From: Candidatus Methanoperedens sp.
GTDB taxonomy: Archaea > Halobacteriota > Methanosarcinia > Methanosarcinales > Methanoperedenaceae
Length of the DNA stretch: 32,000 nt
Assembly (NCBI GenBank): GCA_027460535.1
Contig: JAPZAR010000007.1
Location: 139,307-171,306 of the forward strand
Reading direction: 5' to 3'
A program made the translations under genes and the position numbers. Below, piece by piece: positions 1,884-32,000 of the stretch (the first letter of the stretch is position 1; every line of letters begins with the position of its first letter). Below the pieces are notes generated by a model. The model was not told the origin of the DNA and searched no databases. It saw only the letters and a list, made by a program, of their open reading frames with translations.

Positions 1884-4800
1884 TCACACTGGATGAGCAT
1901 AAATACTCAGTCCCTGTCCAAAATACGAGTCATAGATGTGCTGATATACCACATCACACTTGTGTTGAAATAACTCTTTTGTATAGCTTACTGGCAGTTC
2001 CTCATCCAGAACCACTTCAATAGATTGTCGCACAGCAGCCCGTGATTGCTGGCGCTTTCTCCAATCGAGAACGAGTTTCTCCTGTTTAAGTGTTTCAAGA
2101 AGGTCATGAGCCACCTTCTTTACCTCTTGCTCCTCCTTCTTGCTCAGAATCATCTCAGGTTTTACCAGGAGGTCGAAGACTGCTAATTCCTCCTCACTAA
2201 GATTCTCCGAAATTCCTCTCTTTTCTTCTGCATTGAGTCCCTGGGCGAATTCAACAAGATTGGCGAAGAATGTTTCCACATTATAGGAGCCTGAATTGTA
2301 TTCATCTATCAGTTTCTGAAACTTCTCCAGGTAATTCACCCTGCTCTTGTTTAATCGAACCATTTGCATCAGTTTGCGATTAATTGCGCCCCTCAGTTTT
2401 TCAGCCTCAATCCGCTTTCGACTTTTCTCAAATTTCTCCTTCAGCGCCTCAAAATCGATCTGGCTCAAATCCACAAGGCGATATTCATCGGACCTTTCCC
2501 GGATAACATATCCTTCAGTGGCGATGGACTCGTCCAGCAGATTTTCGACTGATTCCATAACTTCAGAAATGTCAGTTTCAGGAGACAGAGAACGAATTGT
2601 TTCTGCAATTTTAGTGAAAAGCAGCTGTTTCGGGCCGAACTCGTTGGCTGCCGGGTCAGGGAGGATAGCCCTGTATATTCTGACCACACTAGCTGCCATC
2701 GAAAGGTACTTTGCCTTTGATTCGTCGCTGGTCAATATTGCATCAGTAGCATCATCAATCAACTTGACACGCTCAAAACCATAGGCTGCCTGTATCTTCG
2801 AGATGTCAATGCCTCGTTCTGTGCAAAATGCCGTGGTCTCCAAAATCAACTGCTTTAGTTGATCAACGAGCACACTCTTGTCCTTTACCGGAGTTTCGCC
2901 TTCTTCTATTCCGCCGCCTGAGCCAGAACCGTAGATTGCCAGTGCTTTCTGCAGGTTCCTGAACACTCCAACATAATCCACTATCAGACCATTTGACTTA
3001 TCTCTGAAAACCCGGTTTGCCCGTGCTATGGTCTGCATGAGGGTATGGTTGCGCATGGGTTTGTCAAGGTAGATGGTGGAACAGGATGGTACATCAAAAC
3101 CCGTCATCCACATGGCGCACACGAATACGATGCGGAACGGGTCATCCGGGTCCTTGAACTTCGTATCGAGGTCCTCTTTTACGATTCTCTTGCGATGGAC
3201 AGCGATATCTAATCCCTTTTTCTTAAAGTCTTCAATTTCATTTTGCGATTGAGACACCACGACCGCCATGTCAGTATCTTCCATAAATTTGATTTTTTCT
3301 TCAAGTTCCTTTTTCTCGGATTCTCCACATTTTACAAGCTTAATCTTCAAATCCATCTGATACAATTTCCAGTACTTTTGCACCTTATCGTACATCCGAA
3401 CAGCAGTTGCTTTGTCAATGGAGAAGACCATTGCCTTCCCAAATTGCCCGCGTCCCATGAAATGAGTGACAATGTCATTGGCTATCTTCTCCAGCCGGTC
3501 ATCCCTTGTTATCAGGTGGTATTCTCGTGAAAACTCACGCTCAAGTTTATTCTCCTGGTCTGGATCGAGTTCAGCCTCATCGATGAGGCACTGCAGGTCT
3601 TCATTCAGTTCCCTGTTGGTCAGTTGAAGCTCTGGGATGCGATTTTCATAATAAAGAGGAACCGTGGCGCCGTCATCTACAGACTGCTTGAAGTTGTAGA
3701 TGCTGACGTAGTCCCCGAAAACCTCTTTTGTCTTTTCTTCACCGATAATGAGAGGCGTGCCTGTGAAGGCGATGAATGCCGCATTGGGGAGAGCATTGCG
3801 CATGTTCAGGGCAAGGGCATCGTACTGGCTGCGGTGCGCCTCATCCGTGATGACAATAATATCTTTGCGAGCTGAAAGCATGGGATAGGTCTCGCCCTTC
3901 TTTTTATGGAACTTCTGGATGAGTGTGAATATGTAGCGGTGGTCTTCACGCAGCAGCTGCTTTAAGTGTTCTCCGCTCTCTGCCTGCACCTGCTCTTCAG
4001 TCACGGCGCCAGCGCCTGCAAAGTTCTTGTATATCTGGTTGTCCAGATCCTGTCTGTCGGTCACGATAACGAACGTGAAATTACCGGGAATTTTTCGCAA
4101 TACTTTCTGCGAAAAGAAAACCATGGAGTAACTTTTCCCGCTGCCCTGCGTATGCCAGAAGACCCCTAAGCGACCTCTATTCTTTTCGATCTGCTTCAAT
4201 GCCTCAGTAGCGTTATTCACACCAAGGTACTGGTGGTTCTTCGCAACCAGCTTCACAATCCCGCCGCTGGCTTCGCTGAATAGCATGAAATTCTCAATAA
4301 TGTCAAGAAGGCGCGCCGGCTCGCATGTTCCCCTGATCATTGTATCCAGTGAAACAATACCCTCCTCGCCTTCTCTGTTTATCTTTTTCCACTCTGCGAA
4401 GTGCTCCCACTCAGCGGTCATACTGCCTATTTTGCTCTGGCTTCCGTTTGAAAGAATGATTAAACCATTGTACCAGAAGATCTGGGGGATTGCGTTCTTG
4501 TAGTCGCGCAGGTTATCCCTGTATGCATGTTCCAGACGCTTGTGTGATGCCTTAAGTTCGATAAAGACCAGCGGCAGGCCATTTACGAAACCAACAAGGT
4601 CGGCGCGACGCTTGTACATCTCACCCGTTACCCAGAACTGCGATGCAAGGAAGAAATCATTATTCGAAGGTTCATTCCAATCGATTACACGTACGTTCTC
4701 AACGGTCTCTTCATTTTCTTTGCCCCGGAAAGAGACTTTCACGCCGCTCTTCATCAAGCGGTAAACCTCCCGGTTGGCATTCGCCGGGCTCATGATGCTG

Positions 4801-7259: not shown

Positions 7260-7284
7260 AATCCCATCTGAAAAATCACCGAAC

Positions 7285-7699
7285 TAAAAAACCGCGGATG
7301 ATGGCGCCCAGAGTCACGCCTCTGGAGGGCGTGTCCACGTCGACTGTCACGCCAGTCGATTGCGTGCACACGTATGCCAGCGCACTGGCATACGTGGACG
7401 GGCGTCCTCAAGGGGCGCAACCCTTGACGTATGCCCACAGGCATACGTGTGCGCGGAGTCGAGAACCCGCAGGGTTTCGGCGTGATAAACGCAGATACCT
7501 TTGTGCCAGATGCCGGATTTTTCAGAGAAGAGCAAACGTGATGGAACACGGATTGCGCGGATGCGCGCGGATCCGTGGAAATCCGTCCAATCCGTGTTAT
7601 CCGTGTTCTGCGTTGCGGTTTTAGCACGTTTCCAGACCTGAGCGCGAAGGTCGCGGAGACTTCTGAGCTTTGCGTTCTTTGCGTACTTTGCGGTTCTGG
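7285..7699 (-). repeat. Interspersed short-period repeat element, copy A (expanded form with ~260-bp GC-rich insert)
   Basis: Read on the minus strand it runs as follows: ccgcaaagtacgcaaagaacgcaaagc (9-bp CGCAAAG sub-repeats), then cacggataacacggattggacggatttccacggatccgcgcg (ACGGAT sub-repeats), then an insert (7298-7560), then ccgcgg + tttttt. It is collinear with copy B apart from the insert and a ~45-bp segment. It begins about 110 nt downstream of the 63-aa gene stop. Confidence 0.7.
7367..7452. repeat. Nested palindrome / multi-hairpin module
   Basis: gcacacgtatgcc (7367-7379) is the exact reverse complement of ggcatacgtgtgc (7440-7452). Between them the 9-mers ggcatacgt and acgtatgcc occur again, and there is an inner hairpin caaggg..cccttg. 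In total there are four alternating copies of one 9-mer. Confidence 0.7.
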
Positions 7700-7812
7700 A
7701 TATTTCTCATCCATAATGCCCAACAATATATTTTATGGTCTGTTTTTAATCTATAAAGTCATAAATATTTGGTTAGGTTCAAATCAAAGAAAAAGTTGCG
7801 GAGAGAAATGAA

Positions 7813-8004
7813 TTAAGATGAAACGGTTTTCGCATCAATTTTTCCAGACATCAGCCCTTTCTTTTTCCGGGCAGGCACATCATCAACATATTTATAAGAA
7901 ACAACCTTTGTTTCATGTGGCCCTTCCCACTCATCTGGTTTGATCGGCGATGCTTCTATATCTTTTATCGCCTTTTCCCTCTCTTCTTTAGTGTATTTTT
8001 TCAT
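7813..8004 (-). CDS. Hypothetical 63-aa protein, putative antitoxin partner of the BrnT-like gene
   Basis: It starts 5 nt after the stop of the upstream BrnT-like ORF. It is Lys/Glu-rich and I recognise no family. The assignment rests on position only. Confidence 0.4.
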   Translation of the reverse strand: MKKYTKEEREKAIKDIEASPIKPDEWEGPHETKVVSYKYVDDVPARKKKGLMSGKIDAKTVSS

Positions 8005-8447: not shown

Positions 8448-8469
8448 TAAATTTGAAAATTCACATCAT

Positions 8470-8587
8470 AAAAAAACCGCGGTTGACGTGGATACGCGCG
8501 GATCTGTGGAAATCCGTCCTATCAGTGTCATCCGTGTTCCGCACTGTGGCTGTGCTTTGCGCTCTTTGCGTCCTTTGCGGTGGGCTG
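8470..8587 (-). repeat. Interspersed short-period repeat element, copy B (compact form)
   Basis: Read on the minus strand: ccgcaaaggacgcaaagagcgcaaagc ... cacggatgacactgataggacggatttccacagatccgcgcg ... caaccgcgg + ttttttt. It begins about 35 nt downstream of the 45-codon ORF that follows hsdM. Confidence 0.7.
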
Positions 8588-8760: not shown

Positions 8761-10307
8761 CCGGCTTCCAGCAGCCTCTCAACATTCTCAGCAATACGCC
8801 CTTCCAGTTCCCGCGCCTCTACATTAAGCGTTTCAAGCTCCTCGTTCAGTTCCTCAAGGCGTTCCTTGAAATCAAAATCATCAGCCTCGCGTTCAGCCAC
8901 TCCAACATAGCGCCCCGGGTTCAGGCTCCAGCCCTGCGCTTCAATCTCGGAAAGTTCAGCCACTCTGCATAAACCGGGAACATCCACGTATTTAACATCG
9001 GGGAACTTCTCTTTCAACATCGGCGCGCTGCCGTTCGTTGTTTCAGGCTCCTCGCCCCGATATAGCCGCACGATATTGGCAAGGAATTCGATTTGATCAG
9101 GCATGAAGTCTCGATGGGCGCGGTCAACCTGATGGAATATATACCGTGCGTCCAGAAAGAGGACTTTGTCCTTGCGCGGCGTTTTTAACTTGCCGCGGTC
9201 GAGGAACCAGAGAGTGCATGGCAATGTTACCGTGTAGAAGAAGTTCGAGCCAACGGCAACCATTACATCTACGGCGCCAGCTTCAATAAGCGATTTTCGG
9301 ATATCCTGCTCGCTTCCGCGGGCGTCGCTGGCTGAGTTTGCCATCACGAATCCACTGCGACCACCCTCATTCAGAGCGCTGTAAAATACCTGGATCCAGA
9401 GATAGTTGCCATTATCAGGCTTTGGCATGCCAAATGGGAAGCGGGGGTCGTCCTTGATACGCTCCTTGTCCACTCTATCGACGTTAAACGGTGGATTTGC
9501 CATCACGAAATCGAATTTGCCAAAGCTTTTGTGGATATCTTCGTAGTAGCTGTTGCCCTCGCGAATATCTCCAGAGAGACCATGAACCGCGAGGTTCATT
9601 TTGCACAGGCGCACAGTTTCAGCGGTTTTTTCCTGACCATAAACGCTTATCTCAGAATTGGGATTCTTCTTGTGGTTTCCCACGAAACGCGCACTCTGGA
9701 CGAACATACCGCCTGAGCCGCAGGCAGGGTCAAAGATGCGCCCGTGATAGGGCTCGATGACCTCGACTATGAGTTTAACAATAGAGGTGGGTGTAAAGAA
9801 CTCGCCTCCCTTCTGCCCCTCGCTCATGGCGAACTTGCCCAGGAAATACTCATAGATCTTTCCAAAGGCATCGCCTTCAATGTCCATAGGCACAGAGTTG
9901 AATGTCTTTAATAATTCAACCAGGGTGCTGTTATCGAGGTGATTATATGTCTTGGGCAGAATGTCTTTGAGCTCTTCGTTCTCAGCCTCGATGGCGCGCA
10001 TCGCTTCGTTGATGGCCTTTCCAATATCAGCACCTTCTGGCAGGTTGAGAAGCTTGGAGAATCTTGAGGCTTCAGGCAGGTACAGCACACCGCGCGCCTG
10101 GTAATCTGTTTTGCCGACGGCGCGCCTGTCTGAACTTTTACCTGCCAGCTCCTTCTGGGCTATAGTAAACTTGTGATCAGCGTAACGGAGAAAGATCAGT
10201 CCAAGAACCGGGACTGAGTATTCCGAAGATTTTAATTTAGAATTTGCCCGTAGCTCGTCTGCGGCAGACCACAGACGTTTTTCAATCTCGTTATGATTGC
10301 CTGCCAT
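8757..10307 (-). CDS. hsdM: Type I restriction enzyme methyltransferase subunit (HsdM), 516 aa
   Basis: The N-terminus has the HsdM_N signature [36 protein letters not shown]. The AdoMet motif is [11 protein letters not shown] and the catalytic motif is [11 protein letters not shown]-terminal coiled coil is present. Confidence 0.93.
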
Positions 10308-10760: not shown

Positions 10761-11612
10761 ATGGAAATTAAAAGAATAGGGGTGATAGGTGCAGGGATTA
10801 TGGGAGGAGGAATAGCCCAGGTCGCTGCACAGAGCGGTTATGAGGTAGTCCTGGAAGACCTGAACGAAGAATATGTAAAAGCAGGATTCACAAAAGTAAA
10901 AGAAAGACTTGAAAGAAGGGTAAGTGAAGGAAAAATTGAAAGCAAAGAGAAAGACAGGATCCTCTCGAATATAAAAACCTGCACAAGCCTGGAGGATTTT
11001 GGAAATGTTGACCTGGTGATCGAGGCGGTGGTAGAAAATGAAGATATTAAAAAACAGATTTTTAAAGAGCTTGATAGAATATGCCCCAGCGATATCATTT
11101 TCACAACCAATACCTCTTCAATATCAATAACCAGACTTGCCCGGGTCACAGAAAGACCGAAGATCTTTGCTGGTATGCATTTCATGAACCCTGCGTACAT
11201 AATGAAACTTGTGGAGGTGGTCCGGGGGTTGCACACGTCAGAGGAGACAATAGATGCGGTGAAAGCAATAGCTGAAAAAATGGGTAAAATCCCTGCTGTT
11301 GTCAATGATTCACCAGGCTTTGTAGTGAACCGTTTGCTTATGCCCATGGTAAATAATGCCATCTACTGCCTGCAGGAAGGGGTTGCTGCCAGAGAGGACA
11401 TTGATACCATCATGAAGTTTGGGGCAAATCATCCGATGGGACCGCTTGAGCTTGCGGATTTTATTGGCCTTGATATTTGCCTTAATATTATAGGGGTCCT
11501 TCATTCAGAACTCGGAGAGAAATATATGCCTTGTCCATTGCTTCGAAGAATGGTAGCTGAGGGAAAGCTCGGGAGAAAAAGCGGAGAAGGATTTTATGAA
11601 TACAGGAAATGA
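10761..11612 (+). CDS. hbd: 3-hydroxyacyl/3-hydroxybutyryl-CoA dehydrogenase
   Basis: Rossmann motif IGVIGAGIMGGGIAQV; family segments include NTSSISIT, HFMNPA, EVVRG, PGFVVNRLL and DFIGLD. The 283-aa length fits. Confidence 0.85.
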   Translation: MEIKRIGVIGAGIMGGGIAQVAAQSGYEVVLEDLNEEYVKAGFTKVKERLERRVSEGKIESKEKDRILSNIKTCTSLEDFGNVDLVIEAVVENEDIKKQIFKELDRICPSDIIFTTNTSSISITRLARVTERPKIFAGMHFMNPAYIMKLVEVVRGLHTSEETIDAVKAIAEKMGKIPAVVNDSPGFVVNRLLMPMVNNAIYCLQEGVAAREDIDTIMKFGANHPMGPLELADFIGLDICLNIIGVLHSELGEKYMPCPLLRRMVAEGKLGRKSGEGFYEYRK

Positions 11613-12371
11613 ACTCGTAAAGATTGAGAAGAAAAAGGATATCGCGATTCTAATATTGAACAGACCTGAAGCTATGAATGTCCTGGATACCAGAATGCTT
11701 CAGGAATTCGGGTCTTTTTTGACCGAGCTTGAGAATGACAAAGAGATTAGAGCCGTAATTATAACCGGTGAAAAAAATTTCTGCGCGGGGGCAGACATTA
11801 AAGAAATCAAAATAAAACATCCGGCGGAAGCAGAAATGTTTTCAAGGCTGGGTCATAGAGTCTTCAATCAGCTTGAAAATATTGAAAAACCGGTGATCGC
11901 TGCAATTAAAGGCTATGCACTGGGGGGAGGATGTGAACTTTGTCTTGCCTGTGACATAAGGATCGCTGCCGATGATGCAAAATTCGGCCAGACTGAAATC
12001 AATCTTGGTCTTATTCCCGGGTTTGGAAGCACCCAGCGGCTGACAAGACTCGTGGGGATAGGGAAAGCAAAGGAGATGATACTTACGGGTAGGATTATAG
12101 GCGCAAAAGAGGCAGAATCAATCGGGCTTGTCAATATGGTTGTGAAGAATGAAGAGCTTGCGAAAAAGGCAGAAGAAACTGCACAGGTTCTGGCTCAAAA
12201 AGCCCTCTAACTATTAAAATAGCTAAAATGTTGATAAATAAGAATCTGGAAATGAAAAAAGGACTTGAGATGGAGATAATTTCGTTCTCCGAATGCTTTG
12301 CCTCCCAGGATCATATGGAAGGTATAAACGCCTTCCTGGAAAAGAGAAAGCCCAGGTTCAAGGGTAATTGA
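11596..12371 (+). pseudogene. Enoyl-CoA hydratase (crotonase), interrupted by a single-base frameshift near 12202-12207
   Basis: Frame 1 (11596-12210) encodes the crotonase core (NRPEAMNVLD, FCAGADIKE, AAIKGYALGGGCELCLACDIRIA) and stops at TAA 12208-12210. The expected C-terminus (PLTIKIAKMLINKNLEM...FSECFASQDHMEGINAFLEKRKPRFKGN) continues in the frame starting at 12204 and ends at 12371. One extra C in the CCC run would restore a crotonase of about 259 aa. Confidence 0.8.
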
Positions 12372-12601: not shown

Positions 12602-13794
12602 GGCGCGAACTCTTTTCCCAGGATCTCTCTGCCAATAATTATCTTCATGATGTTTTGTGCTCCCTCAGCCCCTATAATATAGGAAGCCACGCCCCTTAAT
12701 CCCCGTTCAAGCCCTGCTTCTTTGGTATAGCCGTATGCCCCATACCATGTCAATACGTCCCTAATGATATCAAAAGCCACGGTTGGCGCAATGAGCTTGG
12801 CACTGGCTACCGCTTTATTTATTTCATTATGGCTGAATCTTTTTTCAGCGTACATCCGGTCAACCATCCAGACCGCTTTGTAAACCATTAATTTTGCAGA
12901 TTCAAGTCTTATAAAATCCTCGGCCATTTGAAACTGGATTCCCTCGAACTTTGCAAGGGGGCTCCCGAAAATGTGCCTTTCTTTTATATATTCAATTCCG
13001 GATTCCAGGGCTTTCTCAGCAGCACCTATGCATGCGGCTGCCACAAGCGTCCGGGCGCAGTTAAAACCCTCCATCGCGTAATAAAATCCATTATTCCATT
13101 CCCCTATGAGATAATGAGCAGGTATCTCTACATTGCTGATATTTATAGTGCCCGTGGATATTCCTTCTCTCCCCATCTGCTTAAAAATGCTGGTAGTTAT
13201 CCCTGGTATATCTTTTACCGGAAGGTAGCAAAGCGACAGGCCTTTATGCTTAAGTTCAGGACTTGTCTTTATGATGGCCACATAACCTCCTCCATATCTG
13301 GCAGCTTCCCTGACACCGCTTATGAAGGTCTTTGCGCCATTTACCACCAGTTTATCACCCTTTTTTTCCATCATAGTTGACATTGCTGCTATATCCGAGC
13401 CTCCACCAGCTTCAGTCGAGGCTATACCCAGAAATTTTTTTCCATTCGTTACTTCGGGAAGAATTTCTTCCTTGGCTTTCTTGTTTCCATATCTATTCAT
13501 CAGGAAACCCCAGCCTGCTTCTACGAGGTAATAAACAGCAGTCGCCATGCTTATATCGGCTCTGGCTATTTCTTCGGCTGCTATTGCGGCCGTGGTGAAG
13601 TCTGCACCCTGCCCGCCGTACTCTTCTGGAATGGTTATACCAAGAAGTCCCATAGCCGCCATATCTTCCACGACTTCACGAGGGATCTCTCCACTCTCAT
13701 CGATTTCGCGGGCACGCGGAGCAAGCTTTTTATTGCAGAATTCCCTCACAGACTTTCTGAAAAGTTCCTGTTCTTCAGTAAAGGAAAAATCCAT
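12595..13794 (-). CDS. Acyl-CoA dehydrogenase
   Basis: N-terminus MDFSFTEEQELFRKSVREF; further ACAD features are GSDIAAMST, WITNG-like FISGV and the C-terminal YEGAQNI-like IGAEGAQNIMKIIIGREIL. The start at 13794 is preferred because ggggtaaaa precedes it; an alternative ATG lies at 13806. Confidence 0.85.
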   Translation of the reverse strand: MDFSFTEEQELFRKSVREFCNKKLAPRAREIDESGEIPREVVEDMAAMGLLGITIPEEYGGQGADFTTAAIAAEEIARADISMATAVYYLVEAGWGFLMNRYGNKKAKEEILPEVTNGKKFLGIASTEAGGGSDIAAMSTMMEKKGDKLVVNGAKTFISGVREAARYGGGYVAIIKTSPELKHKGLSLCYLPVKDIPGITTSIFKQMGREGISTGTINISNVEIPAHYLIGEWNNGFYYAMEGFNCARTLVAAACIGAAEKALESGIEYIKERHIFGSPLAKFEGIQFQMAEDFIRLESAKLMVYKAVWMVDRMYAEKRFSHNEINKAVASAKLIAPTVAFDIIRDVLTWYGAYGYTKEAGLERGLRGVASYIIGAEGAQNIMKIIIGREILGKEFAPY

Positions 13795-25097: not shown

Positions 25098-25170
25098 TAG
25101 GATATTATACTTTGTTATCCATGTAATATGTTAAGCATATTAAACTATTAGTTTTGTTGCGACCTGATTT

Positions 25171-26085
25171 TTATAACTCAACCCCCGCTTTTGATGCTTT
25201 CACCACAAGATAATTGACAAACGCTGAGCAAGATACCAACATGAACTTCGCATCTTCAAAATCCAGATTAGGCTCATCTGATAATCCATGGCGAATCCCT
25301 TCTGCAGCATTTGTATAAAAATATAATTCTTTAAAAGCTCGTGCCAAAGCGGGATGCATCTTCATCTTTTTTCCTCTTTCTATTGCCTCTATGGCAGTTG
25401 TTAATGTTGCAGTTTTATTATTTGATATTAACTTGCAAATTGCTTCAACTGCACTAATAGATTCTTTAACAGAGTTTCTATAATCAGGAGATTTTCTATC
25501 TGCAAGTAAATCCAGTGATGTCTTTAAATGAATTTTGATAGCTTTTAATGAATCAGGAATCTCTAATGCTTCTTCTATTTCAGCAATTTCTTCTTCTTTT
25601 GTTATTTGTGTAATCTTCCCCCCAACAAATCGACAACCTGATAATTCTTTCTCTAAAACATGATTACAGTAATCGATAAATTTGGGATTTACTAAATTAG
25701 TTTCATCAGGATAATTATTGGCTATAAATTCTGTAAAATCATAAACTTCATACCATTCACATTTAAAGAAGTATTTCCTTAAAATTTTGTAATTTAGTTC
25801 CCACCAATCAGGGTTTATTGTATCAATCGGAGTCTTGAAGTAGTCATGCCATAATCTATTAATTAAGGTCCAGATTTCTTTATGGTAGCTACGCCACTTA
25901 TAATCTGAACTTATTTGATTCCAATAAGAAACAGTTAAAGCATTCCATAGACCATTTCTCAACTCATTATCCATAGAATCAACTTGTATAATATTTTTAA
26001 CTGGCTTAATGCCCTTCCGTTGAGAAAATGATTCCATATAGTCTTCAGCATAGTATCTTTGTTTCTCAAATAACTTCCGATGCAT
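25171..26085 (-). CDS. AbiJ-like abortive-infection protein candidate (AbiJ-NTD4-like N-terminus, helical C-terminal domain with RH motif)
   Basis: FSQRKGIKPVKNIIQVDSMDNELRNGLWNAL matches my recollection of the AbiJ N-terminal domain 4 consensus (FS.R.G..P....IQ...md..LRN.LWN). The C-terminus has NAAEGIRHGLSD in a helical context, which could be a HEPN-type active site. An alternative start is ATG 26037 (MESFSQRKG). The gene is visibly AT-rich. Confidence 0.55.
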   Translation of the reverse strand: MHRKLFEKQRYYAEDYMESFSQRKGIKPVKNIIQVDSMDNELRNGLWNALTVSYWNQISSDYKWRSYHKEIWTLINRLWHDYFKTPIDTINPDWWELNYKILRKYFFKCEWYEVYDFTEFIANNYPDETNLVNPKFIDYCNHVLEKELSGCRFVGGKITQITKEEEIAEIEEALEIPDSLKAIKIHLKTSLDLLADRKSPDYRNSVKESISAVEAICKLISNNKTATLTTAIEAIERGKKMKMHPALARAFKELYFYTNAAEGIRHGLSDEPNLDFEDAKFMLVSCSAFVNYLVVKASKAGVEL

Positions 26086-26124
26086 CTTTATATTATCTCA
26101 TCAATTAATGTGTGGGTCGAAAAT

Positions 26125-26358
26125 ATGATTGAAACAGATTATATTAAAAGAAAAATCGAATACTTAAAATACACAACAACCACGTATACTGCAGCGTTAA
26201 TAGTTATTCTTTGGAAAATATATACAGAACCTTACTTTTTCAATAATCTGGGGCTGGGTGAAAACGAATTTTTAATAGGAATAGCTTTTGTCTTTATGTG
26301 TTTGGCAATAATTAGTAGTATTCAATGGCATCAGCAAATAGAGAAATTAAACAATTAA
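26125..26358 (+). CDS. Hypothetical 77-aa protein with two TM helices, divergent from the AbiJ-like gene
   Basis: MIETDYIKRKIEYLK, then TTYTAALIVILWKIY and FLIGIAFVFMCLAIISSI. It has the same AT-rich composition as the neighbouring gene. The track start at 26080 would overlap the AbiJ-like start. Confidence 0.35.
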   Translation: MIETDYIKRKIEYLKYTTTTYTAALIVILWKIYTEPYFFNNLGLGENEFLIGIAFVFMCLAIISSIQWHQQIEKLNN

Positions 26359-26486
26359 CCCCAATACAAGATATATTCCCTTTTGCCATATGGCATTACG
26401 GGATCAAGTGAAAACACCCTCATAATCCATTGCTAAGAAGGATATGTGTGTTGGTGGGATCTAAAAGAGAGAAGCACCCGGCTGAA

Positions 26487-27215: not shown

Positions 27216-28535
27216 TTGGCAGTTCATGGGATTGGCATGGAACTATCCATAACTTTACTGCTCATCTCAATGTTTTTCGGCTTTCTCCTCGGCATTATCT
27301 CAGGTCTAACCCCGGGAATCCATGTAAATAATTTTGCCCTTATCCTCGTGGCATTGTCACCGCTTTTCATGGATCTGGGGTTCGCTCCCTTTTACGTCGC
27401 TGTGATCATCCTTTCAAATTCCATAACCCAGACGTTCCTCGATATCATCCCCTCGATTTTTCTTGGGGCGCCGGAAGCCGATACAGCACTTGCAGTCCTG
27501 CCCGGGCATGCGCTTCTTGCGGAGGGGAAAGGATCTGAAGCCGTGCGTTTATCCGCCATTGGTGCCGCGGGTTCAGTGGTTGTTTCTTTATTGATGGCCG
27601 TTCCGCTAGCGTTTTTCTTCCTGAACATCTACGGCACGATAAACTCATTCATCGGATGGATACTTGTTTTAATTGTCCTTTTGATGATAGCCACCGAGAA
27701 CGGAGAGGTGGTTGAGGGACAGGGATCGCTGGTACATCTCAAATTCAAGATGTATGCGGTGTTCCTGTTCCTGATATCAGGCTTTCTGGGGATGTTCGCG
27801 TTTGATAATCAGGCATGGATGTCGCCGCTTGTAAAATTCGGTGAACCCTCAATACTTCTTCCCCTCCTTTCCGGATTGTTCGGAGCATCAATGCTGGTGA
27901 TCAGTCTCATGACGAAATCCGAAATACCACCCCAGAAAAGGGGAAGCGCGTTCGTGCTTCCCCGAAAAAGAATTGTCAGGGGATTACTGACCGGGAGCGC
28001 AGCAGGTTCTTTTGTGGCATGGCTTCCCGGGGTCTCTTCGGCAGTGGGCACCATTATCGCCCGGCTCATTATACCGGAGGAAAAGGATGAAAATTCGTCA
28101 AAAGAATTCCTGATTTCCATAAGTGGAGCAAATACCGCAAATGCTATCTTCAGTCTGATAGCGCTTTTCATTATCCACAAGGGCAGAAGCGGGGCAATGG
28201 TAGCGATCGACAAACTTGTCAATGTGAGCGAGTGGGATTTTTCCATGGTGATTATTTTATTGATCGTAATTGTATCTATCTCAGTGATTTCTTATTACAC
28301 CACCATCTTTCTCGGTGACAGAGTATCGGGTTTCCTGTCAAAAGTCAATTACTCGAATTTATGTGCCACTGTGTTAATAGGCCTGTCTTTTCTGGTTTTT
28401 ATGCTCACCGGCCTGTTCGGATTTATCATATTCCTTATATCCACGCCGGTCGGGATGATCGCATCATTTGCAAAAATAAGAAAAACGCATGCAATGGGGG
28501 TAATATTGTTGCCTGTGATAATGTATTTCATTTAA
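27216..28535 (+). CDS. TctA/DUF112-family polytopic membrane transporter
   Basis: About 11-12 TM helices. Duplicated PG motifs (ISGLTPGIHVNNFA and FVAWLPGVSSAVGT) are characteristic of tripartite tricarboxylate transporter TctA-like / DUF112 proteins. Confidence 0.6.
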   Translation: MAVHGIGMELSITLLLISMFFGFLLGIISGLTPGIHVNNFALILVALSPLFMDLGFAPFYVAVIILSNSITQTFLDIIPSIFLGAPEADTALAVLPGHALLAEGKGSEAVRLSAIGAAGSVVVSLLMAVPLAFFFLNIYGTINSFIGWILVLIVLLMIATENGEVVEGQGSLVHLKFKMYAVFLFLISGFLGMFAFDNQAWMSPLVKFGEPSILLPLLSGLFGASMLVISLMTKSEIPPQKRGSAFVLPRKRIVRGLLTGSAAGSFVAWLPGVSSAVGTIIARLIIPEEKDENSSKEFLISISGANTANAIFSLIALFIIHKGRSGAMVAIDKLVNVSEWDFSMVIILLIVIVSISVISYYTTIFLGDRVSGFLSKVNYSNLCATVLIGLSFLVFMLTGLFGFIIFLISTPVGMIASFAKIRKTHAMGVILLPVIMYFI

Positions 28536-28663
28536 AACCGAGCATCCTTTCTCTGTGATCCCCGGCTGGTGAAGCTCTGCCGTGCTCTTTACAAGCGTCT
28601 CGGCCAGATCCATCCACCTGTACTTGCCACCAAAGAGATGTCGAATTCATATTTTGAGTCCGA
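28483..28663 (+). repeat. Direct repeat, left copy (last 16 codons of the permease gene plus ~130 bp downstream)
   Basis: Collinear with 30416-30586 at a constant offset of 1933 through the core. 28521-28588 is identical over 68 bp to 30454-30521. The flanks are diverged, with a 6-nt and a 4-nt indel to the right. Confidence 0.85.
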
Positions 28664-28723
28664 AATATCCTTCATCAACCGGTTTGCCATATCCCCAACT
28701 TCTTCCGGTGTATATACTACCAT
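28589..28723 (-). pseudogene. Possible N-terminal stub of a purine/type-I phosphoribosyltransferase gene
   Basis: MVVYTPEEVGDMANRLMKDISDSKYEFDISLVASTGGWIWPRRL* resembles the PRTase N-terminus (..ytweev....a.kl......fD.ivaiarGG..pa..l). It stops after 44 codons, exactly at the edge of the 68-bp identical core. Confidence 0.3.
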
Positions 28724-28870
28724 TCCCCCCTCGTTTAAGAGCTGCCCTTAATGCTTATTAGATTCCAAACCATAAGAAATATAAACCCCTGTTCTCATAT
28801 AAAAGTGGATTTGTAGAATAGCAATGGTGGATAGGAACTAAAGACTCAAACACCAGGATTCTTAGACCCA

Positions 28871-28916
28871 TAAAAAAAAATGGAGCTCAGTCGTTTCAAA
28901 AGGGCAACTGAGCTCC
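28871..28916 (-). terminator. Perfect 10-bp stem-loop followed by T9 on the minus strand (intrinsic-terminator-like)
   Basis: ggagctcagt (28882-28891) pairs with actgagctcc (28907-28916) around a 15-nt loop. The plus strand has A9 at 28872-28880, which is T9 after the hairpin on the minus strand. No minus-strand gene lies upstream of it. Confidence 0.4.
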
Positions 28917-29015
28917 AGCTTTGCCCGAAGGCACGGTAAGGTATACTTTGAGGTCATTAAAAGGTTGCTCAATTGTGCCTCCGAGGGAACAGATAAACAA
29001 TAGGAGGAAAATAAG

Positions 29016-29789
29016 ATGAGAAATAAAGGAATGCAATTAGGTGCAGTGCTTGTGGCGATGCTAATTGTGAGTATGTTATTTGTACCTGCAGTGAGCGCAC
29101 AAGCGGAAAAAGAGAAAGTGAACAAAAAAATAGTGAAGATAATTCAGCTTCAACCAGAATCTGGTAGCGAAGTCATCCTAAATTCATCTAATGCAACCCG
29201 ATGGTCAGATGATTCAATATCCTTTGGTGGCAGTGGTGAGAAGCGAGTGGGTGAGCCTGCATTATATTTCAGCATTGAAGTAAATATCTCAAAGGGAACT
29301 TACAAAACAATCAAACGGAATATTTCAAATGATATCGAATTCACGCCTGTCTTAAGCAAAGTTGAAATCTACAATAATGAACTTGTCCCGAATATTTTGA
29401 CAGCAGGGGTAAAACCAGGAACATGGTTAGCGACAATTCAGATGATTACCAAGGATCCAGCTTTGTGGGATCTTGCAAAAACAACCCATACTCTGACGTG
29501 GACCGTAAATCCCAGTGGAACCGTGACATATAAAGGACGCATAGACAGCTGCTGGGCAGCCAATCCATCTCCCCTTAATACACATTGGTATGTGGATTCA
29601 TGCAATTTCCAGGGCAGCTATTTATATTCAGCCGATTATACGGCTCTCTTCTCAACGGTTGATAATAAATTCCATAATTGGGATTTCATGAATCAAAACC
29701 AAGCCACTTATGTAGAGCACTGGAATCAGATTAAAGGAAGAAATGATGGATACTATAATTACTGGATTGATTTTGTGTATGCAAGTTAG
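29016..29789 (+). CDS. Secreted protein of unknown function (Sec signal peptide; Trp/Asn/Tyr-rich C-terminal half)
   Basis: The RBS aggagg lies 9 nt upstream. The signal peptide is MRNKGMQLGAVLVAMLIVSMLFVPAVSAQAE. The C-terminal part has two Cys (RIDSCWAANPSPLNTHWYVDSCNF) and many W/N/Y residues. I recognise no family. Confidence 0.7.
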   Translation: MRNKGMQLGAVLVAMLIVSMLFVPAVSAQAEKEKVNKKIVKIIQLQPESGSEVILNSSNATRWSDDSISFGGSGEKRVGEPALYFSIEVNISKGTYKTIKRNISNDIEFTPVLSKVEIYNNELVPNILTAGVKPGTWLATIQMITKDPALWDLAKTTHTLTWTVNPSGTVTYKGRIDSCWAANPSPLNTHWYVDSCNFQGSYLYSADYTALFSTVDNKFHNWDFMNQNQATYVEHWNQIKGRNDGYYNYWIDFVYAS

Positions 29790-29833
29790 AAAATCTCCCT
29801 ATTTTTATTTTTTTATTATCTCGAGGTTTGTTC

Positions 29834-30382
29834 ATGGCAATTCAAGATCATAAAGAAGTTATTTGGATGAGCCTGCTATTCGCTCTTACAATCGGCATAT
29901 TACTTTTAATGATCAAAGGAAGAACAGCATCAAAGCATAAGGTCTTTGGTTCTATTCCTCTCTCATTGTCAAATGTTTTATTAACTTTTTCATTTCTTCA
30001 GGTATTAGGAATCGGGTTAATGGTCGTTCTCATAGGAATTTTCGGGAATAATATTTCATCTAACAACCCCCTCAGTGTCGTACTTCAGTTTGTTGCTGTT
30101 TTTTATGGACAAATTATTACTATATTTACTATATTTGGAACATTATATATAATGTTTAAAGAGCATAATAAACCACAAAGAAGGGCATTCGATTCAGCTT
30201 CAATCATTTTAGTGAATGATTTATTGTTTCTTTCCGTTTTATGGGCATGGTCGTATGGAAAAACACTAATCTTGCTCAATATAATTTTAATACTATTTCT
30301 TATTATAAAAAATCAACATTATAAATATCCATTTATTGCAGTTTTGATCCTCAGTATATACTTTGCATACTGGATATGGTAA
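29834..30382 (+). CDS. Polytopic membrane protein of unknown function (5-6 TM)
   Basis: ATG at 29834 with gaggt 6-7 nt upstream (the track start at 29828 is TTG). The sequence has successive hydrophobic helices and is very AT-rich. I recognise no family. Confidence 0.6.
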   Translation: MAIQDHKEVIWMSLLFALTIGILLLMIKGRTASKHKVFGSIPLSLSNVLLTFSFLQVLGIGLMVVLIGIFGNNISSNNPLSVVLQFVAVFYGQIITIFTIFGTLYIMFKEHNKPQRRAFDSASIILVNDLLFLSVLWAWSYGKTLILLNIILILFLIIKNQHYKYPFIAVLILSIYFAYWIW

Positions 30383-30415
30383 TATGTTTTAAGTCAATGA
30401 GTTTTGCTGAGCCAT

Positions 30416-30586
30416 AAACGCACGGGATGGGAGTGATTTTGCTCCCTGTGATGATGTATTTCATTTAAAACCGAGCATCCTTTCTCTGTGATCCCCGGCT
30501 GGTGAAGCTCTGCCGTGCTCTCTACAATGACCTGCATCCGTCAGCAAAACCTGACACCAAAGTGAAGTCGGGTTCATTGAGTCCGA
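30416..30586 (+). repeat. Direct repeat, right copy (displaced 16-codon remnant of a permease 3' end plus downstream sequence)
   Basis: It encodes *THGMGVILLPVMMYFI*, against THAMGVILLPVIMYFI* in the intact gene. Four of the six changed codons are synonymous. The core 30454-30521 is identical to 28521-28588. Confidence 0.85.
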
Positions 30587-30775
30587 GGTTCTGTCAGGTC
30601 TTAGGTTGATTGCGACACCTGTCAAAAATCGGTTGATAAAAATAAACGATGGATGGAATTTTATCGGGACATATACCAAGTTAAAAATACCAAAACAGTC
30701 TATATGTTCGAAGGCAACAAGTAGCAGATTCCAAATATCCATGTTACCGACCCCAAAATCCCATATCGCTCATTT

Positions 30776-31298
30776 ATGATATTCATAGATGGTGCTATCT
30801 AAGAAATAAAATGCGGAATACATTTGGACACGATAATATAAAATTTGGTATATTATCATCGCTTCTTGTTCAGAGTCAAATTCTCTTGGGGTAATCAATA
30901 TGGAACTTGTAAGGGTATATTATTACGATGCAATAGTTGATTTTAGAGATGATTCAGAAAAACATCAAGAGCAAGAGTCTTATTTTAAGAGGATTCAAAA
31001 AATTAATAATTACGAAGTTAAACTTGGGAGACTTATAAAAACAGGCAAGAATAACAATGATTATCGACAAAAAGGGGTTGATGTTCTTTTGGCGATTGAT
31101 ATGATTAGTAAAGCCCATTTAGATCACTATGATATTGCGCTTCTTTTAGCAGGGGATGATGATTATTTAGACATGGTAAAATCAATAAAAGATTTTACTG
31201 GGAGAAGGGTTTATGGGGCTTATTTTGAGAATAGTGCTTCAAAGAGATTGGTCGAATTTTTCGACATGCGAATCCCCATGACAGATGATATGATTTAG
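30776..31298 (+). pseudogene. NYN-domain (LabA/DUF88-like) ribonuclease gene, disrupted near the 5' end
   Basis: The 30900-31298 ORF has the NYN core ELVRVYYYDA, KGVDVLLAIDM and ALLLAGDDDYLDMVKSIK. The expected N-terminal catalytic segment MIFIDGA is encoded at 30776-30796 in another frame, with an in-frame TAA following at 30800-30802. A frameshift near 30835-30845 is also needed. Confidence 0.6.
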
Positions 31299-31501
31299 TA
31301 AACTTGTTGATATCAAGTAATAATTCAAAAAGGTTGATACTGCCGCAGATAAACGAGATGCCGCTTGTGAAACAGCCGATTGATAATGTTGATATAAGCA
31401 AGCTGATGGATGATTTTGTGTGAAAAGCGGTTTCGCGAAAGAAGGATGAAGCATGAAATAGGTTCTAACGAAAACTTATTTTAGTTAAACGAATAATTAG
31501 T

Positions 31502-32000
31502 ATGTGCATTATAATGAATGAAATAATTCCAGATAGAGTTAATAAAATCGCACAAATAATATCCGAAGTATCGCATTTAAACGAAACCGATATGTTCATC
31601 CTGCTGACCCTGCTTGCCGACAGTACGATCACCAATGCGGAGCTTGCAAAAATATTGAAATTCAAAGACGGGAATTCTGCGGCATATCACACACGCACCA
31701 TGCAACAGGAAGGAATAATTGACCGATATACCATTGTTCCCAACTGGAAACGTATGGGGCTGGCAACGGAATTCATCGTACTGGCTGAAGCGGAGAATGA
31801 AGAACAACTGCTTGAGATCGAGAAAAGGAATATAATAATGGCAGATGAATATGCAACGATACAAGGAGATATTGTTGTAAAGGAGACAATCTCAGGTTGT
31901 GTAATCCTTAAGGATGTCTTCCACTGTTTCGGTGATAAAACGATGGCGATAATAATCGGAAGAGCAACATCTGACCAGGATGCTGCGGTCTATTGCAAGA
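31502..32000 (+). CDS. Lrp/AsnC-like transcriptional regulator (3' end beyond the window; not in the ORF track)
   Basis: Open frame from ATG 31502 (or 31514) to the window edge. The HTH is ITNAELAKILKFKDGNSAAYHTRTMQQEGIIDRYT, followed by a RAM/ACT-like beta-alpha segment LATEFIVLAEAENEEQLLEIEKR. Confidence 0.55.
   Translation, partial: MCIIMNEIIPDRVNKIAQIISEVSHLNETDMFILLTLLADSTITNAELAKILKFKDGNSAAYHTRTMQQEGIIDRYTIVPNWKRMGLATEFIVLAEAENEEQLLEIEKRNIIMADEYATIQGDIVVKETISGCVILKDVFHCFGDKTMAIIIGRATSDQDAAVYCK

Follow-up and report, generated by a model that had tools for sequence, protein, structure and literature searches.

This study concerns a stretch of 32,000 nt from Candidatus Methanoperedens sp. 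(assembly GCA_027460535.1, contig JAPZAR010000007.1, positions 139,307-171,306 of the forward strand), called the window below, which is Methanoperedens chromosome with the local gene order FtsZ, an AbiJ-like islet, HemD, a TctA-family permease gene, a small cassette, a NYN-domain gene and an Lrp-like gene. The 3' end of the TctA gene has received an insertion of 1,933 bp, the cassette, which carries two genes, restores the end of the permease gene and is bracketed by diverged direct repeats. On balance, we consider it probable that these repeats are the two junctions of an attachment-site (att) type insertion at a recurrently used site in the TctA tail, the cassette having been moved in trans or being the stripped remainder of a larger element. 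L-numbers designate compared loci or contigs and P-numbers compared proteins, and positions in the tail are counted back from the end of the TctA stop codon.

Alignment of the two ends of the insertion confirms the collinear direct repeats (28483-28663 and 30416-30586) and the identical tract within them (28521-28588 = 30454-30521) that an earlier note on this DNA had described. The first 112 nt (28483-28594 / 30416-30527) align without gaps and are identical at 102 positions, the longest exact run at the offset of 1933 being the 68 nt of the tract, and gapped homology continues to approximately 28663 / 30586 (181 versus 171 nt, 81% identity, 5 gap openings). On the left flank of the 68-bp block, 29 of 38 positions are identical. 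By our estimate, about 1e-32 repeats of a 68-mer are expected by chance in 32 kb, and the probability of 68 consecutive matches at a flank identity of approximately 0.8 is about 3e-7. Since the independent assemblies L041 and L044 of the same strain carry the same structure, an assembly artefact is excluded. L041-L044 come from the samples ERZ27247940, ERZ27247996, SRR20964297 and SRR15677233. As claimed before, the block covers the end of the gene, the stop and downstream DNA, with the correction that it includes the last four sense codons (MYFI), not five, and then 53 nt beyond the stop. Only the last 16-17 TctA codons are repeated and nothing TctA-like lies between the repeats. The right copy of the tail, THGMGVILLPVMMYFI, is a remnant of 16 codons preceded by a stop, and seven of its codons are changed relative to the intact tail, five of them synonymously and two non-synonymously, where four synonymous changes in six had been counted earlier. 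The DNA between the repeats (28664-30415) is indeed AT-rich, with a GC content of 0.366 versus 0.432 for the window and 0.465 for TctA. The drop is moderate, so that "much more AT-rich" overstated it, and most of it is due to the membrane-protein gene (GC 0.306); the tetranucleotide distance of the cassette falls in about the top 10% of windows.

The TctA open reading frame (ORF) opens at 27216 and its homologues align from 27237. The identical 432-aa protein (P0008) is encoded on 6 other contigs, and 34 orthologous TctA loci are present in Methanoperedens metagenome-assembled genomes at 69-83% amino-acid identity. Across 36 Methanoperedens loci, the similarity stops precisely with the stop codon, beyond which the neighbouring genes vary (LplA, MFS, Prismane and others). 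In the closest relative, L045 (85% amino-acid identity), TctA is followed by 90 nt and then by lipoate-ligase genes with no cassette, and L018 and L031 share this compact arrangement. Of 35 loci that were compared, 4 have a displaced TctA tail: the window, L009, L013 and L026. The junctions of the window, L048, L013/L026, L009 and L059 all fall within the same 15 nt, at -53 to -39 of the tail (Table 1). This zone is the left edge of the repeat and lies 25-40 nt upstream of the 68-bp block, a position at odds with the earlier suggestion that the block is the att core. Since the boundary lies upstream and the two repeat copies of the window differ at nine positions between it and the block, we read the block as a conversion or crossover-associated tract. 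Gene conversion, which had been offered before as the alternative, is its most likely origin. Three database TctA proteins are truncated at the same zone: P0031 ends in KTHAMEG, and P0107 and P0109, which end in KIRKTHAMGV, may owe their ends either to one more insertion at the hot spot or to contigs breaking at that very base. Around TctA, two further loci were noted. In L005 (approximately 4500-4580) the sequence right after the gene resembles, by eye, the 3' end of an opposite-strand tRNA gene, and in L011 (9602-9670) only the last 23 HemD codons are left upstream of it; both are signs of rearrangement points at gene ends in this region.

The comparison of loci demonstrates that the cassette has passed from one lineage to another. 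When metagenomes were scanned with its 26-nt right end, one true match, L048, and 5 chance matches were obtained. In L048, the leader, an inactivated copy of the first cargo gene (c257), an intact copy of the second (c184), the 26-nt end and a decayed TctA tail precede a right flank which is collinear with the DNA directly after TctA in the cassette-free loci L028 (87%) and L033 (83%). The right flank of this cassette is not the same in the window as in L048, and since the cassette is 87-93% identical at the nucleotide level between them, a value higher than the 74.6% of TctA between the window and L028, it is younger than the split of its hosts. The architecture of the window is also found in L013 and L026 (26-nt end 21-24/26, TctA approximately 70% identical), with S8 or other proteases and lipoproteins as cargo instead of c257 and c184, and the three inserts share a leader of approximately 200 nt upstream of the first gene. 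In L009, the TctA body is native up to -43 and is followed by a foreign 42-nt tail ending in YFF and a stop; the insert of 837 nt is unrelated and contains a SEC-C-motif gene, the native tail is displaced rightwards, and the site is empty in the relatives L002 and L004 (TctA 93-96% identical). L013 shows in addition duplicated fragments to the left of its displaced tail (11794-12039 resembling 13291-13538, and 11046-11248 resembling 12030-12232), which are an internal LplA segment and the 3' end of a 329-aa cassette gene; this patchwork indicates repeated illegitimate joining in the islet. Two Logan contigs which stop at 28550 were considered as a within-strain polymorphism and rejected, this position being the break expected in the 68-bp repeat for an assembly graph of k=31, which we assume to be the value used.

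The same codons are the entry point of an element with its own integrase. L059 (JGI 3300038455, Ga0436474_0017054) was reached through the truncated protein P0031: its TctA gene (91% nucleotide identity to L028) breaks after ...GCGATGG, at -39/-38, and within approximately 50 nt of the break lies a Phage_integrase-family gene (Pfam E=3.5e-22, with a zinc ribbon) followed by genes for MazE, for a protein of 626 aa and for one resembling ArdC. Integrases of archaeal pleomorphic viruses share 36-37% identity with this integrase, of which no relative was found in the viral contigs searched. Since the L059 element breaks TctA at the same codons, the site is interpreted as an att-type target for archaeal tyrosine integrases, one of which may have moved the cassette of the window. 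Methanoperedens harbours large plasmids, and these encode phage-type integrases (PMC9674854).

The following sequence of events could account for the locus. The DNA would enter the last TctA codons (K-T-H-A-M-G), at a distance of 39-53 nt from the end of the stop codon. The insert would bring, in this order, a replacement TctA tail with approximately 128 nt of following DNA, a promoter/signal-peptide leader, the secreted-protein gene, the gene of its membrane partner and the 26-nt end. Because the unit carries its own tail, the permease stays intact, and the native tail would be pushed to the right and survive as the 16-codon remnant behind a stop. Gene conversion between the already diverged repeats, either later or during the crossover, would give the 68-bp identity. 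Since the cassette contains no recombinase, it would be either a satellite mobilised in trans or what is left of a larger element after stripping. The loci of the relatives support the earlier proposal of an integration footprint left at the TctA 3' end by an integrase-less element that restores the gene.

Several results weigh against an att-type insertion by an integrase. As the earlier note had seen, no integrase lies between the repeats, and scans with Pfam, NCBIfam, PHROGs and PADLOC detected no recombinase domain in the cassette ORFs or anywhere in the 32-kb window. There is none either among the 25 most frequent of 101 Pfam families for the 118 ORFs located up to 4.3 kb downstream of TctA in 36 loci. 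The L059 element, which does bring an integrase to the site, is not tied to the cassette: it shares no sequence with it, leaves the TctA tail unrestored, and has its right end off the contig, so that the 26-nt end cannot be linked to it. Empty alleles, which the note had named as a check, exist for L048 and L009, but none was found for the right flank of the window itself; each of the 6 same-strain contigs carries the cassette or ends in the repeat. Patterns made from the core, the 26-nt end and the leader gave 0 matches in viral contigs, so that no free, circular or viral form was detected there; the cassette had no match in plasmid or phage collections, and the metagenome scan made with the 26-nt end revealed no free form. 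Leader-headed arrays at other loci are bounded by repeats of 600-750 bp with no integrase nearby. Finally, the two copies do not become alike at a constant place: in L009 the switch is at the left edge, in L013 at the right edge, and in the window it falls at -15 to +53; this variation is more easily explained by homologous recombination than by a fixed crossover.

These observations lead to the hypothesis of an insertion driven by homology, with no integrase at all, the 68-bp block being the heteroduplex or conversion tract of the crossover. Either the repeats of a donor would recombine and the resulting circle, with one copy of the tail, would re-insert by a single Campbell-type crossover, or a linear donor fragment would be anchored in TctA by homology and joined illegitimately at its far end. 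Besides the variable switch point and the absence of a recombinase in or near any cassette, this hypothesis is in agreement with the homology of the window running 128 nt past the stop, far beyond the need of an att core, and with the arrays found in L055 and, in L035, at the UbiA locus, bounded by long repeats of 80-97% identity which are typical recombination substrates; the same mechanism has been proposed for effector-immunity arrays of type VI secretion systems (T6SS) (PMC5361080). In contrast, random capture of tails would not make three unrelated kinds of insert share a boundary within 15 nt, one of them with an integrase at that place; in L009 only 42 nt of approximately 85% homology are left as an anchor, which is very short, and the 26-nt right end is conserved beyond the neutral expectation. 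We regard this explanation as possible but on the unlikely side. Accretion in tandem, by which the right repeat would be the left end (tail and approximately 120 nt) of an earlier member of the same family, pushed to the right, so that the DNA from 30420 to approximately 31500 with the ORF o93 and the NYN gene would be its remains, would refine the att-type insertion and not exclude it. It would explain the otherwise unexplained homology of 28536-28663 with 30469-30586, and is consistent with the AT-rich DNA (GC 0.31-0.35) which extends to approximately 31600 with a candidate defence gene (NYN; PADLOC HEC-09, 9e-14), with the next core gene, Lrp-like, beginning only at approximately 31514, and with the successive displacement in L035, where three copies of the UbiA fragment and leader are found. 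As no third copy of the tail, of the 26-nt end or of the leader occurs in 30587-32000, and the right flank is common to no relative, we judge it rather improbable. A plain local duplication and decay of a TctA paralogue or segment, vertical and immobile, is far less probable still. Leader and right end differ between the window and L013/L026 (68-92%) to a degree similar to that of host genes (approximately 70%), which would allow an old vertical origin there; yet the repetition is limited to 16-17 codons with nothing TctA-like in between, and the same cassette on different right flanks in the window and L048, together with the cassette-free alleles L028 and L033, largely refutes it. The cassette identity of 87-93% across lineages with TctA at approximately 75%, and the presence of the c257-c184 pair at a locus other than TctA, argue in the same direction.

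The two cargo genes are, as had been noted from the start, of unknown function: no match was found in Pfam, NCBIfam, PHROGs or PADLOC. The product of c257 is predicted to be secreted and mostly composed of beta-strands; its homologues were found only in Methanoperedens, the four closest (P0002-P0005) at 51-57% identity, and its AlphaFold2 model is poor (predicted local distance difference test score, pLDDT, of 43). Near its 3' end (approximately 29771), the c257 gene of the window lacks 39 nt (13 codons) which are present in L041 (12535-12574), in L044 and in all homologues (270-271 aa), a gap that is an in-frame deletion at the strain level. The predicted membrane protein c184 is 44% identical to the partner gene in L035. 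In L048 (reverse complement), c257 is destroyed by a deletion of approximately 510 nt and a frameshift (130-470) next to an intact c184 (474-1020, 83% amino-acid identity to the window copy); a dead secreted gene beside an intact partner is the pattern that an orphan immunity gene would be expected to show. The window's 26-nt right end recurs with 24/26 identical positions in L026 and in L048 and with 21/26 in L013, the neighbouring DNA being unalignable. It is more conserved than coding DNA, and since this exceeds the neutral expectation, the sequence comparison suggests that it is a functional end of the element. A derivation of this end from decayed TctA codons was considered and is unsupported, only TTTGC being shared.

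The leader upstream of c257, for which no Rfam match was obtained, is found at 66-87% identity in L026, L013, L035 (3 copies), L055 (4 copies), L053, L057, L058 and L048. In Methanoperedens, such leaders of approximately 200-350 nt head many unrelated secreted-protein genes. Their signal peptide is nearly invariant (MKxSKGMQLGAxLAAMLLLSMAFVPAVSA), and with a profile of it at least 177 clusters of proteins (50% identity; 31-425 aa, many of them truncated) were recovered. The few with Pfam matches are peptidases, and a lipoprotein or a protein with several transmembrane segments is the product of each module's second gene. The cassette is a non-autonomous member of this Methanoperedens-specific family of secreted-protein modules. 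On the contig L035 (record Methanoperedens_BLZ2) there are three modules, of which the third is the c257-c184 pair, and direct repeats of 600-750 bp with 93-97% identity (3725-4474, 7316-7924 and 9339-10092) each comprise a UbiA 5' fragment and a leader (leaders at 4207-4470, 7701-7931 and 9822-10090). These UbiA 5'-end repeats bracket three different two-gene modules and are the mirror image of the TctA 3'-tail duplication. L055 contains four leader-headed modules in tandem (leaders at 295, 2872, 5717 and 7286), and further arrays occur in L057 and L058. We tentatively raise, as an unlikely but attractive extension, an undescribed cassette system in which modules with no recombinase would carry the end of a housekeeping gene, insert in trans, restore the gene and stack into arrays. 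The gene ends would be the TctA 3' tail in the window and the UbiA 5' end in L035, and in its function the whole would be integron-like, with the restoration of a gene end taking the place of attC. Such a system, if true, may exchange secreted effector/immunity pairs between strains. The Lrp-like gene of the window (31514-32000) is 76% identical in amino acids to a gene located beside the UbiA array (L035, 2512-2994); the c257-c184 module lies approximately 1.1 kb from the gene in the window, with the gene downstream, and approximately 7 kb from it in L035, with the gene upstream, and the insertion sites differ.

Other identities of the repeat and of the cassette were examined. ARAGORN found no tRNA and Rfam no family (gathering and E-value thresholds) in the 32-kb window, and the repeat as a tRNA or known RNA was rejected on these grounds. 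A terminator or small-RNA structure in the 68-bp block was also rejected, the fold z-scores (+0.7 to -1.4) being not significant. The minus-strand ORFs over the repeat (93 aa, and 40/44 aa) have no homologues in any locus and no family matches, their reading frames differ between the two copies, and they are probably non-coding rather than a real convergent gene. An insertion sequence or miniature inverted-repeat transposable element is not supported: no convincing terminal inverted repeats (the best pairs are 75-78% complementary and misplaced) and no transposase were found, and the duplication is of 171-181 nt and diverged, whereas a short target-site duplication would be expected. Likewise, the window and the arrays L035 and L055 yielded no integrase, and no IntI, attI or attC-type site of an integron cassette was found, though no formal attC scan was made; the units repeated between the cassettes are promoter/signal-peptide leaders of 230-750 bp which are not attC-like. 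The earlier note had named the tail of a tandem TctA paralogue array as a finding that would speak against integration; tblastn with TctA gives one copy in the window, a second TctA body being absent and the duplication limited to 16-17 codons. A mosaic analysis of the window TctA was uninformative, no relative being closer than approximately 80% at the nucleotide level, and the 49-nt tails were too short for a phylogeny to tell the native copy.

Table 1. Features of the TctA locus and of the inserted cassette (positions in the window)
Feature	Position	Strand	Basis or remark
TctA-family permease gene, intact	27237-28535	+	Pfam TctA E=1.9e-62
Inferred insertion/crossover zone AAACGCATGCAATGG, codons K-T-H-A-M-G	28483-28497	+	Junctions of five occupied loci
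Left repeat (attL-like): working TctA tail and 128 nt downstream	28483-28663	+	Repeat alignment
Left copy of the 68-bp identical tract	28521-28588	.	Exact run; downstream of the comparative junction
Cassette-specific left spacer	28589-28748	.	Sole homology is that of 28589-28663 with 30522-30586
44-aa ORF in the left spacer	28589-28723	-	Probably spurious; no family match
Conserved leader	28749-29103	+	Upstream block, hairpin, invariant motif, TATA-like box, ribosome-binding site, signal-peptide codons
Leader hairpin	28882-28891 / 28907-28916		Compensatory changes
Leader invariant motif GCCCGAAGGC	28923-28932		Upstream of the TATA-like box
TATA-like box ATTAAAAGG	28956-28964		In the leader
Ribosome-binding site GGAGG	29003-29007		In the leader
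Cargo gene 1 (c257)	29016-29789	+	Signal peptide; predicted secreted protein, function unknown
Cargo gene 2 (c184)	29834-30382	+	Predicted membrane protein, 5-6 transmembrane segments (hydropathy); partner of gene 1
Conserved right end ("P-arm") TCAATGAGTTTTGCTGAGCCATAAAC, 26 nt	30394-30419	+	Comparison with L026, L048, L013
Putative attP-type substrate: 26-nt right end, AAACGCATGCNATGG and TctA tail			
Right-end sequence that a shared integrase family would predict beside the displaced tail in L059-type elements: TCAATGAGTTTTRCYGAGCCATAAAC			
Right repeat (attR-like)	30416-30586	+	Displaced TctA tail and 118 nt homologous to 28536-28663
Displaced 16-codon TctA tail and stop, THGMGVILLPVMMYFI	30418-30468	+	Within the right repeat
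Right copy of the 68-bp identical tract	30454-30521	.	Exact run
93-aa ORF (o93)	30461-30742	-	No homologues found
Remaining variable AT-rich islet before the next core gene	30587-31513	.	GC 0.335 for 30587-31600
NYN-domain gene just right of the right repeat	30900-31298		PADLOC candidate system HEC-09, E=9e-14; surrounding GC 0.31-0.35
Lrp-like core gene	~31514 to window end (32000)		

Two other places in the window deserve mention. FtsZ and HemD, neighbours in L003, L005 and L019, are separated here by a second AT-rich islet (25100-26480, GC 0.32); the islet encodes an AbiJ_NTD4 protein of the PADLOC candidate defence family PDC-S32 (E=2e-111), and no flanking repeats were found around it. 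Diverged direct repeats at 7266-7618 and 8451-8549 (78-81% identical, CGGAT/ATCCG-rich) bracket approximately 0.9-1.2 kb between hsdS and hsdM in a type I restriction-modification locus.

Gene flow in Methanoperedens is under close study owing to the giant "Borg" elements and to the large plasmids. These organisms are anaerobic methane-oxidising archaea, and the locus shows a route of gene flow on a small scale, a hot spot formed by a conserved permease gene's last codons, where DNA of at least three unrelated kinds has entered and where the gene order changes at the stop. It also led to secreted-protein modules which share one leader and are shuffled between loci and lineages. If plasmid or virus integrases move these modules in trans, this would be a testable mechanism for the exchange of extracellular enzymes or of antagonism/immunity genes; if the locus is only an eroded prophage-type scar, it would be an ordinary case of a well-known footprint.

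Among known systems, e14 (and phage 21) in the icd gene of E. coli resembles the cassette in its insertion within the 3' end of a protein-coding gene, the element supplying a replacement 3' end and the native end being displaced as the pseudogene icdC. The e14 element starts 165 nt before the end of icd, with icdC at the far junction; in MG1655, icd and icdC are identical at 153/165 positions, with 9 synonymous and 2 non-synonymous changes, to be compared with 5 and 2 in the remnant of the window. In contrast, e14 measures 15 kb and has its own intE and xisE, whereas the cassette of 1.9 kb has no recombinase and an archaeal host; only 49-53 nt of coding sequence are replaced here, approximately 120 nt are shared past the stop, and a conversion-like block of 68 bp is present. 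Genomic islands in tRNA and tmRNA genes (Islander definition) leave a related footprint and, unlike the cassette, have a tyrosine integrase beside one junction, a feature which at this target is found only in the unrelated L059 element. The dusA islands insert in the 5' end of a protein-coding gene and are the nearest parallel to the UbiA 5'-fragment repeats of L035 (PMC4482086).

The T6SS effector-immunity arrays of Vibrio cholerae and the orphan modules of Rhs and contact-dependent inhibition (CDI) systems are similar in another respect, as two-gene modules (a secreted effector and a small partner) are stacked there beside a conserved anchor, older modules and anchor fragments are shifted downstream, and L048 resembles an orphan immunity gene. 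They differ in that no secretion machinery or toxin domain was identified here and in that the anchors are unrelated housekeeping genes combined with a shared leader; a toxin/immunity function of the modules would follow by analogy. Integron cassettes and the integrative mobile elements exploiting Xer (IMEX), which borrow the recombinase of the host, are small and recombinase-free and depend on a recombinase gene located elsewhere for their insertion at a fixed site; cassettes also occur in arrays. In contrast, the cassettes of the window type carry their own promoter/leader and a piece of the target gene, and the target is not a dif site. In view of these comparisons, the kind of footprint is a known one, of which the target, the missing integrase and the cassette family are new variants.

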